From Candidatus Chisholmbacteria bacterium RIFCSPHIGHO2_01_FULL_52_32 (GTDB lineage Bacteria > Patescibacteriota > Microgenomatia > UBA1400 > Chisholmbacteraceae), in the NCBI GenBank assembly GCA_001816585.1, contig MHCJ01000006.1, forward strand, positions 40 through 64,039: a stretch of 64,000 bases of DNA, given 5' to 3'. The stretch's first letter is position 1. Every line of letters starts with the position of its first letter. Positions 37,171 through 42,193 of the stretch are shown here, piece by piece. A model generated the notes under the pieces. It was not told where the DNA came from, searched no databases, and worked only from the letters and a program-made list of their open reading frames with translations. The translations under genes and the position numbers were made by a program.

Positions 37171-37176
37171 GCTCTG

Positions 37177-37249
37177 TGCTAGGGGTGGGATTCGAACCCA
37201 CGACCTATCGCTTATGAAACGACCGCTCTGCCACTGAGCTACCCTAGCA
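37177..37249 (-). tRNA. tRNA with anticodon CAU, either elongator Met or Ile2/lysidine. They cannot be distinguished by eye.
   Basis: Minus-strand cloverleaf: GCUAGGG / UA / GCUC-AGUGGCAGA-GAGC / GUCGU-UUCAUAA-GCGAU / AGGUC / GUGGG-UUCGAAU-CCCAC / CCCUAGC-A. Confidence 0.85.
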
Positions 37250-37261
37250 ACACCTCAAAAT

Positions 37262-37295
37262 TGTACCAAAAAGAAAGCCCCGAAAGAAATCAGGG
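37262..37295 (-). terminator. Intrinsic terminator immediately downstream of tRNA-fMet.
   Basis: Minus strand: aagccc-ugauuucuuuc-ggggcuu followed by ucuuuuugg. Confidence 0.45.
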
Positions 37296-37578
37296 CTTGA
37301 GTGTTGCGGGGCCAGGAGTTGAACCTGGTCTGCGAGATTATGCGTGTTGTTTTCTCCAGTTTCCTGGAGTACCGGACTATGTCTTAACCCGTTAGATAAT
37401 CATAATCACATATCTAATGGGTTCCTGGCGTATAGTCTCTACGGATTCCCATTCAAGGTCTTTCCTCGGCGTTGCCGTACTCAGTTCATGAGGGTAGGTT
37501 TCGCCGATATAGCCAGGTGCACTCCATCAATTACTCGATAGAGGGCCCATCATTGAGCCTCACGTGCTACCGTACACT
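37296..37578 (-). tRNA. Initiator tRNA-fMet (CAU) interrupted by a group I intron in the anticodon loop.
   Basis: 5' exon CGCGGGGUAGUGUACGGUAGCACGUGAGGCU. 3' exon CAUAAUCUCGCAGACCAGGUUCAACUCCUGGCCCCGCAA. The C1 x A72 mismatch and the CGCGGGG...CCCCGCAA acceptor are initiator hallmarks (compare E. coli tRNAfMet CGCGGGG...CCCCCGCAACCA). The spliced anticodon loop is CUCAUAA. Confidence 0.7.
37335..37547 (-). ncRNA. Group I intron of about 213 nt inserted between U33 and C34 of tRNA-fMet.
   Basis: The 5' exon ends in U (the P1 U-G pair) and the intron ends in G. The core elements resemble the R and S elements as I recall them from group I introns such as Tetrahymena's (written from memory): GUAGAGACUAUACG against an R-like ucAGAGACUAnA, and UAAGACAUAGUCCGG against an S-like AAGAUAUAGUCC. 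An IGS-like GGGCCCUC can pair with the exon end GAGGCU. Confidence 0.65.
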
Positions 37579-37734
37579 ACCCCGCGCGTTGTCAAAACGA
37601 GCCAATTTTACCAAATTCCTCTGGAAAAATCAACCTAAAAAAACGTCTCTCTCTAAACGCATTTCAATTGGACCAAGAAGCATGAAGTATTGAGTAAGAA
37701 GGAAATAAACTCGCTTTGGGGATCTCTTCTTGAA

Positions 37735-38476: not shown

Positions 38477-39355
38477 ATGAATGGGTCCAATTCCCTATCC
38501 CTTAAGCAGTCACGCGAAGAATTCATTGCAGACCTCCGCGCAAAAAAGCGTGCAACCGCTACCATTCTAGCATATGGGAAAGATATCGAGCAGCTTGCCG
38601 AGTTTCTCGAAAAAACCGAGATCACCTCAACAGAAGCAATCACCCCGGAGCACATCAAAGCCTTTACGCTCAACTTAGGGAAACTCAACTACACTGCCAA
38701 ATCCATCTCTAGAAAAATTAATTCTATCAAGTCCTTCTTTCGATTTCTAAAGGCTAAAGAGTATATCGAAACAAATCCCACCACCGCGATCGTTCATCCG
38801 CGTTACGACGTCAAGCCACCAAGAGTTCTTTCAAAGATGGAATACCGGGCCCTTCGCGATGCCTGTCGTTCGGACACGAGAATCTCTTCAATTGTAGAGA
38901 TGCTCCTGCAAACCGGAATACGGATCGGCGAACTCGCCAACCTGAGAATTGAGGACCTTGATCTTGAAAAAAGCGCCATGACCATCCAACCATACGAATC
39001 GCACGGGCTCCGAACCGTACCCCTCACAAGAGCCGCCCACAAAGCCCTCGAAGACTATATCGAAGAACGTCCGAAAACACGGGAGAAAACACTCTTTGTC
39101 ACCAAAACCGGCCGCCCATTCCTCGTCCGGAACATCAGAGCAGCCATTGATCGCTACTTCAAGCTGGCAGGGATAAAAGATGCGAAAGTCAATGACCTCC
39201 GCCACACCTTCATTGCCCAACAGTTGATCGCCGGAACGCCGTTGGTATATATTTCAAAGCTCGTTGGCCACAAACGGCTCTCCACTACCGAAAAATACCT
39301 CAAGGTCATCAGCGAAAAAGTGGAAAAAGACGAAGTGAAACTGGAAGAGCTCTAA
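38477..39355 (+). CDS. Tyrosine site-specific recombinase, XerC/XerD-like.
   Basis: 292 aa with an N-terminal core-binding domain and a catalytic R...HxxR...Y (LRHTF...TEKYLKV). Confidence 0.75.
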   Translation: MNGSNSLSLKQSREEFIADLRAKKRATATILAYGKDIEQLAEFLEKTEITSTEAITPEHIKAFTLNLGKLNYTAKSISRKINSIKSFFRFLKAKEYIETNPTTAIVHPRYDVKPPRVLSKMEYRALRDACRSDTRISSIVEMLLQTGIRIGELANLRIEDLDLEKSAMTIQPYESHGLRTVPLTRAAHKALEDYIEERPKTREKTLFVTKTGRPFLVRNIRAAIDRYFKLAGIKDAKVNDLRHTFIAQQLIAGTPLVYISKLVGHKRLSTTEKYLKVISEKVEKDEVKLEEL

Positions 39356-39593: not shown

Positions 39594-39651
39594 CCTCACT
39601 ATAACACACAATCAAAGCGAGCAAAAGAAGGAAAAGAAATAAACACGATTG

Positions 39652-39723
39652 TGCGCCCGCTTGGATTCGAACCAAGGACATCTACTTTATAAGAGTAGCG
39701 CTCTGCCGCTGAGCTACGGGCGC
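39652..39723 (-). tRNA. tRNA-Ile with anticodon UAU (reads AUA).
   Basis: Minus-strand cloverleaf: GCGCCCG / UA / GCUC-AGCGGCAGA-GC / CUACU-CUUAUAA-AGUAG / AUGUC / CUUGG-UUCGAAU-CCAAG / CGGGCGC-A. Positions 34-36 are UAU. Confidence 0.75.
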
Positions 39724-39865: not shown

Positions 39866-42193
39866 CTACAGCCTGGACCTCTTCGCCACATCCGCCTCAA
39901 TCTCAGTCCGGTCCTTCCCGTACTTAAGCCTTGAAAGCTGACGGATCATCTCTCCGACTTTGGGATTCCGCAGTCTTCGCTCCTCTTCCACATCCTTGGT
40001 TAAATCCATCGAAAACGGCGGCATGGGCTCGTTATTCACCACGGTTTTTATGTAGACGTTGAACCGTTCGACATTCACCAAATCCCCTTCGGTAAAGGTC
40101 GGGGTAAACTCATGTTGAAGGAAATTTGCGTCCGACACACCAACCCGGAAGGTAACCAAACTTCCCACATTTCCGAACACAGCCTGTTTCACCTCTTCCT
40201 CAACCTGCCCAATGAATTGGTTGGCAACCGTCAGGTTCAGTTTATACTTCCTCGCTTCGGAAAGAATGACCGCAAAATCCGGTGTCGCAAAGTTCTGGAA
40301 CTCATCAACATAGAGGTAAAAATCGCGTCGTTGTTCCTCCGGAACATCCTGACGGCTCATCGCCGCAATAAGGATCTTCGGCACCAGGATAAGCCCCAAG
40401 AAGTTGCTGTTTTCTTCCCCGATCTTCCCCTTCGCAAGGTTTATAAGAAGTATTTTTCCCTCATCCATCACGTTTCGGAAATTGAATGCGCTCGCAGATT
40501 GCCCGATGATATTTCGCATCATCTTGTCTGTGACAAACCGCCCGAATTTCGAGACGATGTAGTCCAACACCTCGGATTTATGGAAGTCTGCCGTCTGGGC
40601 AATCTGGTCCGTCCAATAACGCCTGACGATCGGATCGCGGACCTTGGGAAGCAATTCCTGAACATACTTAGAATCGGTGAGCACCCGCACCACCTCAACA
40701 AACGTGTTGCCCGGTTCGCTCATTACGGTAAGCATCGCATTGCGGATCGCGTGCTCAAACCGCGGTCCGATAATCCCCGTCTTATGGGGATCGTAGAGCT
40801 TGTACATGAGGCCAATGAGCGAGGAAACCACGAAATGCTTCTGTTCTTCGGTTTCTGCTTCAAGCATGTTAAGCCCCATCGGCCGTTCGGTGTCGGAAGG
40901 ATCAAAGTAGATTACATCCTCCGCCCGCTCGGGAGGAATAAGCTCCAAGATCTGCTCAACCATGTCATGGGGATCAATAAAACACACCCCTTTCCCCGCC
41001 CGGATGTCTTGCATAATCATGTCTTTTAAGAATTCCGACTTCCCCGTCCCCGTTTTCCCGATGATGTACATGTGCCGCCTGCGGTCATCATCGGCGATGT
41101 AGACCTTCCGTGTCACCCCCCGGTAGGCGCTCTTCCCAAGGTAAAGTCCCTCTAAAGGAATCTGTGCCGGTGCCGGTGCCCTTTTCGCCATCAGCCAAAA
41201 GATGTGGGGGGTTTCCACCTGCTTGTTGGGAAAATGCATGATGGTTGCCAACTCTTCACTCGAGAGGACCGACCGCTTCCCAAAAAACGGCTGGTACCGG
41301 TAAATAAAATCAATCATGAATAAACGCCGAAGCCAAATCCGCGCCTTCTCGAAGCCGTTCTGATCCGAGGAAAACTGGGAAAATGCCCCGATGATGTTCC
41401 GAAGATGAGCCTCCGCCGACTGCTGCGATGTGGATGAAACGACGATGCGAATAGTTGTTTCAAAGCCTGGTTTTGCAACCTTATTCTCAATGGCTTCCAA
41501 GGTTTTTGCATCCACCATATATCTGGCTTTCTCGGGATCCGCCTCCTGAGCCTTAGTTTTAGCAACATAAGAAGCTCCCGCACTCTGCCAGGATTTTGAA
41601 GCGGGACTGATAAGGATTTGCAGCACCGCTCCTTCATCATCACCCATCTTCGCCAGTGCCGAGGTAACCGAACTCAACGGATCAGTGGGAAGTTCCTTAT
41701 ACACCTTCAGCGGTAAGTGAGAAGACGAACGAATTTTAAGCTGAGCATAAGCAACTTTCCCGGTTTCTGAAAAAATATTGTACTCATCAACTTCCTTAAC
41801 TTCTGCTCCGGGATATGCCCCATGGATCTGCTTTTCAACCAAATCGCGGAGCTCCATCGGACAGACAACCATGAAACGGATATCCTCTTTCCGGGCTACA
41901 ATCTCAAAGGAGAAGTGATCCTCAGGTTTAAACCAGGAAAAGAAACCGACTTTTTTAACGGAGAACAAACTGGCGAGCATCTGCTCAGCAACATCGATCT
42001 TGAGTTCGTTATCCCTCGGCACCGCAACCTGCAAAACCACCGATCCGAGCGAGTACTCTTCCCTCCTCCGGTAACGGATCCATTGAAACAGAAGATAGAA
42101 AAGGGCAACCAACCCCACGATCCCAACGGCCGCAATAATCATCAGGGTAACAAAGAAGAATGCTGTTCCGACCGGATCACTCACTCTCGGCAT
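39866..42193 (-). CDS. Membrane-anchored P-loop ATPase of the FtsK/HerA-TraD/VirD4 superfamily (AAA-like, DUF87 / type-IV coupling-protein-like).
   Basis: 775 aa with an N-terminal TM helix. Walker A IIGKTGTGKSEF near the middle and Walker B LYVDEFQNF. The family assignment is from architecture only. Confidence 0.45.
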   Translation of the reverse strand: MPRVSDPVGTAFFFVTLMIIAAVGIVGLVALFYLLFQWIRYRRREEYSLGSVVLQVAVPRDNELKIDVAEQMLASLFSVKKVGFFSWFKPEDHFSFEIVARKEDIRFMVVCPMELRDLVEKQIHGAYPGAEVKEVDEYNIFSETGKVAYAQLKIRSSSHLPLKVYKELPTDPLSSVTSALAKMGDDEGAVLQILISPASKSWQSAGASYVAKTKAQEADPEKARYMVDAKTLEAIENKVAKPGFETTIRIVVSSTSQQSAEAHLRNIIGAFSQFSSDQNGFEKARIWLRRLFMIDFIYRYQPFFGKRSVLSSEELATIMHFPNKQVETPHIFWLMAKRAPAPAQIPLEGLYLGKSAYRGVTRKVYIADDDRRRHMYIIGKTGTGKSEFLKDMIMQDIRAGKGVCFIDPHDMVEQILELIPPERAEDVIYFDPSDTERPMGLNMLEAETEEQKHFVVSSLIGLMYKLYDPHKTGIIGPRFEHAIRNAMLTVMSEPGNTFVEVVRVLTDSKYVQELLPKVRDPIVRRYWTDQIAQTADFHKSEVLDYIVSKFGRFVTDKMMRNIIGQSASAFNFRNVMDEGKILLINLAKGKIGEENSNFLGLILVPKILIAAMSRQDVPEEQRRDFYLYVDEFQNFATPDFAVILSEARKYKLNLTVANQFIGQVEEEVKQAVFGNVGSLVTFRVGVSDANFLQHEFTPTFTEGDLVNVERFNVYIKTVVNNEPMPPFSMDLTKDVEEERRLRNPKVGEMIRQLSRLKYGKDRTEIEADVAKRSRL

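Follow-up and report, generated by a model that had tools for sequence, protein, structure and literature searches.

Introduction

The introns of Azoarcus tRNA-Ile and Anabaena tRNA-Leu are the model group I ribozymes of bacterial tRNA genes; both belong to subgroup IC3, and they are inserted at sites 36/37 and 34/35, respectively. A survey of 4,934 complete bacterial genomes by Nakagawa et al. (2026; PMC13011429) yielded 333 tRNA group I introns from 18 phyla, with position 33/34 of tRNA-fMet being one of the commonly found and well-characterised insertion sites. In the portion of their Table S5 considered here, the rows for tRNA-fMet 33/34 came from Bacteroidota and Cyanobacteriota, and all of them were of subgroup IC3. 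Table S3 of the same study listed two Microgenomatia genomes (GCA_013426185.1 and GCA_001029755.1) with introns recorded as “Met (CAT) 33/34”. Here, we analysed a 64-kb stretch of DNA (the window) from Candidatus Chisholmbacteria, which belongs to the Microgenomates within the CPR (candidate phyla radiation)/Patescibacteria, in which a tRNA-Met(CAU) gene with initiator-type features was split in its anticodon loop by a 213-nucleotide (nt) group I intron. Introns of this lineage, likewise located in this tRNA, were published in 2026 for related Microgenomatia, and the window provides a further example. Taken as a whole, it is highly probable that this element is a compact group I intron without an open reading frame (ORF), located between U33 and C34 of a tRNA(CAU) that is most probably the initiator, and that it belongs to a Microgenomates lineage inherited mostly vertically, with no recent arrival from cyanobacteria.

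An interrupted tRNA gene in the window

Scanning of the whole window with Rfam returned a single group I intron match, to RF00028, at 37353-37565 (coordinates here and below are those of the window and refer to the minus strand unless stated otherwise). With 82.7 bits (E 1.6e-19), the match exceeded the gathering score of 50, and it covered model positions 1-253 of 253. ARAGORN with intron detection rebuilt the cloverleaf of a tRNA-Met(CAU) with a 213-nt intron placed after U33 (“aggct-intron-cataa”). The original prediction, made from the sequence alone, of a group I intron splitting a tRNA in the anticodon loop was therefore borne out by two of the checks that it had proposed, a covariance-model scan and a tRNA scan with intron detection. 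In its default mode, ARAGORN missed the interrupted gene and saw only an intronless Met(CAU) tRNA at 37176-37248 and an Ile(UAU) tRNA at 39651-39723 in the window.

The whole gene, as delimited in the intron mode of ARAGORN, occupied 37304-37586 and comprised a 70-nt mature tRNA and the intron. The interval given at first, 37296-37578, had the correct length of 283 nt and was displaced by 8 nt. According to the sequence, ARAGORN and splice-site calling, the 5' exon (37556-37586; CGCGGGGUAGUGUACGGUAGCACGUGAGGCU) supplied tRNA positions 1-33 with U33 as its last base, and the 3' exon (37304-37342; CAUAAUCUCGCAGACCAGGUUCAACUCCUGGCCCCGCAA) supplied positions 34-73, ending with the discriminator A at 37304; CCA was not encoded. 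The intron recognised by RF00028 extended from 37555 to 37343, started with CAAUGAUGGGCC and finished with AACACG; its length, predicted as roughly 213 nt, was exactly that. Because CA was repeated at both junctions, three cut positions would lead to an identical spliced product, and the insertion was placed at 33/34 since only this position left a U (37556) ahead of the 5' splice site and made G (37343) the last intron base, the two residues that had been predicted there. The two strings quoted originally as resembling the R and S elements, GTAGAGACTATACG and TAAGACATAGTCCGG, were both exact; each occurred once in the window, at 37429-37442 and 37372-37386, respectively, with a chance expectation of 0, and they supplied the two strands of P7. 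The ORF list of the window contained no ORF on the sense strand of the intron and only short antisense ORFs overlapping it, so no homing endonuclease was encoded in the intron. No intron-less copy of the interrupted tRNA was found within the 64-kb window.

Homologous introns

A scan pattern derived from the P7-P3'-P8-P7' region was run against one genome per bacterial or archaeal species, and at least 119 stretches matched. In intron mode, ARAGORN assigned about half of the homologues to Leu(CAA) or Ser(CGA) and placed the intron at 36/37, a mislabelling caused by the CAA at the start of the intron and also described as an artefact in PMC13011429. For this reason, its calls were replaced by exhaustive enumeration of the splice sites, with a U before the 5' site, a G at the intron end and the exons meeting within the anticodon loop. 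At least 44 further species-representative genomes had the tRNA(CAU) seen in the window with a 33/34 intron, and their introns were 180-266 nt long. At least six more loci, which were truncated or missed by ARAGORN, were recognised by their exon motifs only, bringing the number to about 50 in all. Among the matches listed, all informatively named hosts of this tRNA and intron were Microgenomates, namely Woese-, Roizman-, Gottesman-, Chisholm-, Shapiro- and Levybacteria.

About 25 species-representative metagenome-assembled genomes (MAGs) carrying the Microgenomates-type tRNA and intron were titled “uncultured Gammaproteobacteria” or “Pseudomonadales” (L012, L017, L019, L023-L025, L028, L029 and others). 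The taxonomy in these titles seems to be erroneous or a placeholder, as in the example of OZ246397.1, a 615-kb chromosome.

Predicted fold and covariation

The window intron and the 44 genome introns were aligned (alignment A1, 45 sequences) and compared with a P1-P9 model in which P7 was treated as a pseudoknot and from which P9.0 was excluded, since its pairing could not be consistently defined across the homologues. In this model, 93.2% of the cells formed standard pairs, compared with 34-48% when the partners were slid by 1-3 columns. Compensatory changes on both sides occurred at 24 of 45 pairs, the clean ones mostly in P3, P4, P8 and P9, and none of 500 shuffles reached any of the observed measures. 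The spliced tRNA behaved in the same manner, with 98.1% of its cloverleaf paired across the 45 sequences and eight compensatory pairs. Selection has thus maintained the fold of the ribozyme as well as that of the tRNA, which speaks against a pseudogene.

Minimum free energy (MFE) folding recovered P1-P6, P8 and P9 with a z-score of -4.63, and none of 200 shuffled sequences folded as well. P1 (37544-37559), which was formed in the MFE fold, paired the exon GGCU and the first intron bases with the internal guide sequence UGGGCC and placed a U33•G wobble at the 5' splice site. The U•G and the adjoining C-G were invariant in the 45 sequences and the G-C was kept in 44 of them; the terminal intron G was likewise present in all 45. 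By inspection, the AUG beside the guide sequence can pair with the CAU of the 3' exon as P10. P2 (37522-37543; -10.4 kcal/mol for the segment in RNAfold) was a 9-bp hairpin capped by a GUAA tetraloop of the GNRA type; all nine of its pairs changed on both sides among the homologues, with 70-85% of the cells paired in the MAFFT alignment, which was poorer in this region. The two strands of P3, CCUGGC (37512-37517) and GCCAGG (37424-37429), formed the P3/P7 pseudoknot together with P7; P3 was paired in 94% of the cells, with compensatory changes (UA/CG/UG) at three of its six pairs. The P4-P5-P6 domain (37443-37507) consisted of P4 (UCGGCG/CGCCGA), an AAA at J4/5, the P5 hairpin, and P6 with a GG/CC base and an inner hairpin. 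P4 was 99.6% paired, with switches from U-A to A-U and from C-G to U-A, and the bases of P5 and P6 were paired in 100% and 99%, respectively.

In P7, the 5' strand G-A(bulge)-GACUA (37433-37439), lying within the R string, paired with UAGUCC (37374-37379), which lay in the S string after the J8/7 segment UUAAGACA; the Rfam alignment agreed on both strands. Guanosine is predicted to bind at the G-C pair that follows the bulged A. The invariance of P7 in all 45 sequences lends the model no support and counts neither for nor against it, because the search pattern itself required P7. P8 (37388-37421; RNAfold -11.6 kcal/mol) showed compensatory changes at all three basal pairs. P9 (37354-37369) was a single hairpin, CUCCAG-GAAA-CUGGAG, whose loop was a tetraloop of the GNRA type, either GAAA or GUAA among the homologues; it showed 99-100% pairing and compensatory changes at five of six pairs, and it was followed by a 3' tail of 11 nt ending in G. 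The P1-P9 folding suggested with the original prediction thus yielded an acceptable core with a P3/P7 pseudoknot and covariation in P3, P4, P8 and P9.

Identity of the interrupted tRNA

Judging from its sequence features, the interrupted tRNA is probably the initiator of the organism. Its acceptor stem (CGCGGGG/CCCCGCA) carried a C1xA72 mismatch followed by G2:C71 and C3:G70, its discriminator was A73, and its CAU anticodon lay in the loop CUCAUAA. A mismatch at 1:72 in combination with pairs 2:71 and 3:70 is the main determinant for the formylase (PMC5389676), and a cyanobacterial tRNA-fMet exon in the portion of Table S5 of PMC13011429 considered here had an acceptor stem identical to the one in the window. 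Position 1:72 was CxA in 18 of the homologues.

Several features weigh against this assignment. More than half of the homologues (26 of 44) had a Watson-Crick U1-A72 pair and no mismatch. The three G-C pairs at 29:41, 30:40 and 31:39 were absent, and A29:U41, G30:C40 and G31•U39 were found there in all 45 sequences. Position 11:24 was U:A in all 45, compared with A11:U24 in the Escherichia coli initiator, and the D loop had 6 nt. In PMC13011429, the homologous tRNA was labelled “Met” instead of “fMet” on the basis of the best intron-less match. The description of the gene as a canonical initiator tRNA therefore holds for the C1xA72 mismatch, the CGCGGGG acceptor strand and the CUCAUAA loop, but “canonical” was an overstatement in view of the anticodon stem, U11:A24, the D loop and the published label.

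These same observations (the “Met (CAT)” assignment of the homologous Microgenomatia genes, the anticodon stem, U11:A24 and the U1-A72 pair) would also fit a host tRNA that is an elongator tRNA-Met or a tRNA-Ile2, with the true initiator encoded elsewhere and the intron as described above. We consider this unlikely. The usual elongator pair at 1:72 is G1-C72, and it occurred in none of the 45 sequences. A conventional elongator-type tRNA(CAU) with G1-C72 was encoded 55 nt downstream (37177-37248; ARAGORN and the Rfam tRNA model, 73 bits), and a tRNA-Ile(UAU) lay approximately 2 kb from the interrupted gene (39652-39723; Rfam tRNA model, 72.8 bits). The UAU anticodon is rare in bacteria, and its presence suggests that reading of AUA needs no tRNA-Ile2(CAU) modified with lysidine. 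The CxA mismatch, G2:C71, C3:G70 and A73 of the tRNA in the window are formylase determinants, and its au/GC/gu anticodon stem is a natural initiator variant of some mycoplasmas and alpha-proteobacteria (PMC5389676). The published “Met” label was probably assigned by an isotype classifier whose training set consisted of canonical initiators.

A more elaborate proposal starts from the same unconventional features, namely a pyrimidine at position 1 opposite A72, the au/GC/gu stem, U11:A24 and the 6-nt D loop. It holds that the tRNA is an unconventional initiator called elongator Met by annotation pipelines, and that the intron is kept in many lineages of these reduced genomes, not as a neutral passenger, but since guanosine-dependent splicing would tie the supply of the initiator to the guanine-nucleotide status of the cell. 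As a whole, this proposal seems improbable to us.

Relationship to described intron lineages

All of the following scores refer to a profile hidden Markov model of the 44 genome introns, from which the window was excluded. The window intron scored 127 bits, and the two published Microgenomatia Met 33/34 introns scored 128 and 120 bits. The Microgenomatia Asp 35/36 intron of GCA_001029755.1 reached 48 bits and a Bacillota_B Ile2 33/34 intron (IC3) 40 bits. Of three cyanobacterial fMet IC3 introns tested, one scored 21 bits and the other two gave no match, and a Bacteroidota fMet IC3 intron scored 18 bits. These scores place the window intron within the published Microgenomatia lineage and show it to be related only distantly to the cyanobacterial tRNA-fMet intron.

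The exons and the intron core of both published Microgenomatia cases matched the window closely. Their hosts belong to the same class and have the same unusual tRNA (xGCGGGGUAGUGUACGG..GCAC...AGGCU before the junction and CAUAAUCU... after it), interrupted at the same site by introns of 190 and 216 nt, compared with 213 nt in the window. The core strings GGCUAUAUCGG, UAGAGACUAYACGCC and AAGAYAUAGUCCG and a GNRA-capped P9 were common to all three. P2, P5, P6 and P8 differed in sequence while their pairing was kept, and the tRNA in the window had C1xA72 whereas both published tRNAs had U1-A72. Chisholmbacteria also represent a different order-level lineage, outside the complete-genome set of PMC13011429. 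The best intron-less matches of the Microgenomatia Met 33/34 tRNAs, with 94-97% identity, were other Microgenomatia genomes (PMC13011429).

The distribution of the lineage fits its being widespread in Microgenomates through mostly vertical inheritance with losses, as far as sequence comparison can tell. Among the matches listed, the nearest intron was that of the other Chisholmbacteria representative, with 78% identity in the intron and 99% in the exons, and the introns of Gottesmanbacteria and Roizmanbacteria clustered by host. Against vertical descent, the exon and intron distances were only weakly correlated (Spearman rho 0.07), so the case for it rests mainly on the clustering of the named taxa.

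Recent acquisition by lateral transfer of a cyanobacterial-type tRNA-fMet intron is very improbable. The two introns do resemble each other in the type of host gene, the 33/34 site, the splice-site U•G, the GGGC guide pairing with the exon GGCU and the general motifs of the group I core, but the guide is common to both lineages because the exon sequence that they have in common dictates it. The profile separated them clearly, with 21 or 18 bits or no match for the cyanobacterial and Bacteroidota fMet introns against 120-128 bits for those of Microgenomatia. They also differed in build: the cyanobacterial intron has a longer P2 region, a different P6 and J3/4, and a 3' domain of the form CCAGACCxCAAAC...GAAAG...GUGGUAxG in place of the single P9 hairpin of the window. 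Some cyanobacterial tRNA-fMet introns encode a PD-(D/E)XK homing endonuclease, whereas the window intron is ORF-less, and in the cyanobacterial exon sequences considered here the host tRNA has the canonical GGG/CCC anticodon stem, unlike the tRNA in the window. The presence of the intron in at least 44 Microgenomates species with clustering by host, and the finding that no Patescibacteria tRNA intron belongs to subgroup IC (PMC13011429), likewise argue against such a transfer. The original statement that group I introns in tRNA-fMet are known mainly from cyanobacteria was outdated, given the Bacteroidota rows and the two Microgenomatia cases; the phylogenetic informativeness claimed for the present intron was built on that premise. 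The lineage was already published and is remote from the cyanobacterial introns.

Two further groups of introns can be compared. The tRNA-Asn and tRNA-Asp 35/36 introns of Patescibacteria, mostly of subgroup IA (PMC13011429), are found in the same phylum, are compact and mostly ORF-less, and have a similar layout of P3-P4 and P7-P9; they differ in the host tRNA and the site, and self-splicing has been shown experimentally for them, whereas it is predicted for the Met 33/34 introns. The overall plan of the window intron is presumably similar to that of the Azoarcus and Anabaena introns, which we take to be anticodon-loop introns of about 200-250 nt with a short P1, no P5abc, and GNRA loops L2 and L9 able to dock into helical receptors, and to differ from the window intron in sequence and insertion position.

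Predicted transcription and splicing

Transcription would yield a 283-nt precursor, possibly running from a promoter-like site to a terminator-like hairpin of its own. The promoter-like site found by a consensus scan (37605-37633; TTGATT-17 nt-TAAAAT with an extended -10 TG) ended 19 nt upstream of tRNA position 1. Such sites occur in the sequence at chance frequency (one found versus 1.0 expected in shuffles), which weighs against a transcription unit of its own and makes the site weak evidence for a promoter. On the other side of the gene, AAGCCCUG...CGGGGCUU followed by UCUUUUU (37268-37298) formed a terminator-like hairpin, with a stem-loop at 37298-37275 of nine pairs, five of them G-C, beginning 6 nt past the discriminator and located between the interrupted tRNA and the next tRNA. 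The hairpin and its U-run make a terminator candidate, a better one than the promoter-like site is as a promoter candidate. An intrinsic terminator had been predicted at 37262-37295; the hairpin with its TCTTTTT is indeed present after the gene, but it lies at 37298-37275 plus the tail.

The precursor would then fold into the group I core, with P1 presenting the splice-site U•G, the P3/P7 pseudoknot, P4-P6, P8 and P9, and with GNRA tetraloops at L2 and L9. A free guanosine bound in P7 would attack the bond after U33, and the freed 3'-OH of U33 would attack the bond after the terminal G while P10 aligns the 3' exon. Ligation of the exons would restore the CUCAUAA anticodon loop, and processing of the ends and post-transcriptional addition of CCA would complete the tRNA. 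The steps from core folding to exon ligation are established group I chemistry. One point weighs against extending it to this intron: the in vitro splicing assays of PMC13011429 were confined to the 35/36 introns of tRNA-Asn and tRNA-Asp. It is nevertheless scarcely credible that the gene is a pseudogene with a decayed intron remnant that no longer splices, for although its self-splicing is predicted from sequence, it encodes no homing endonuclease, and reduced genomes do contain decaying genes, the core is intact (U•G, terminal G, P7 G-C with the bulged A, and J4/5 AAA), the compensatory changes that keep P2, P3, P4, P8, P9 and the tRNA stems across 45 species require selection on the folded RNA, and the window holds no intron-less copy.

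Neighbouring genes

The elongator-type tRNA(CAU) lay past the terminator-like hairpin, and its anticodon stem contained no run of three purine:pyrimidine pairs; an intronless tRNA(CAU) stood beside the interrupted one in many of the homologous loci as well. The genes around the tRNA were housekeeping genes, encoding Fpg, a glycosyltransferase, a stand-alone 5'-3' exonuclease, FtsH, a tRNA-binding protein, tryptophanyl-tRNA synthetase (TrpRS), DivIC, a XerC-like recombinase, Maf and a corrinoid adenosyltransferase. The TrpRS and the 5'-3' exonuclease had exactly the sequences of OGY17780.1 and OGY17777.1 from Candidatus Chisholmbacteria, which assigns the host to the Microgenomates, and also occurred on metagenome scaffolds. 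The tRNA-Ile(UAU) was flanked by the XerC-like tyrosine recombinase (38477-39355, plus strand) and by a 775-residue protein (39866-42193) with weak matches to the P-loop proteins TraD/VirD4/HerA. The recombinase and the 775-residue protein may be what is left of an element that integrated next to the tRNA genes.

Other matches of the core pattern

Many of the remaining matches of the scan pattern were rRNA introns. At least 26 of the 75 non-tRNA matches adjoined sequences resembling large-subunit (LSU) rRNA in a crude BLAST classification, and another six of them were the truncated or missed tRNA loci recognised by exon motifs. In a Parcubacteria MAG (L010, 453-683, minus strand), the core pattern belonged to a group I intron in the 23S rRNA (LSU rRNA 1-2840), with an Rfam score of 57.8 bits. 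Matches were also present in MAGs from outside Patescibacteria (L056 of Elusimicrobia, L106 of Clostridiales, and L072, L074, L111, L118 and L123), covering Elusimicrobiota, Clostridiales, Anaerolineae, Omnitrophota, Chloroflexota and Methylomirabilis; the tRNA reconstructions of L056 and L106 were ambiguous.

The viral contigs of IMG/VR gave seven matches (L126-L132), none of them in tRNA-fMet, so a phage vehicle for this intron is unsupported. L126 and L128 apparently carried the core pattern within a different tRNA gene, where it followed, on the downstream side, a long insert that contained an ORF. A GGCTGTATCGG...CCGAGGGAAGTCGTAATTGACCCCG core near that of the Woesebacteria tRNA intron was common to L129 and L132, yet in non-tRNA contexts. 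In a blastn search of the region against 50,697 phage records, the intron was unmatched and only the neighbouring intronless tRNA found matches.

Implications

The finding leaves the existing knowledge of group I introns and of translation initiation unchanged, and its consequences concern annotation and distribution. Because standard finders either miss the interrupted gene or report a Leu(CAA) gene with a 36/37 intron in its place, the genome seems to be without its probable initiator tRNA, and at least 44 other Microgenomates genomes share this annotation gap. The published count of this lineage, two cases from complete genomes (PMC13011429), is extended by the Chisholmbacteria example and by at least 44 species-level genomes. 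If the interrupted tRNA is indeed the initiator, as is probable, the 33/34 site of tRNA-fMet would be occupied by at least two intron lineages that are only distantly related.

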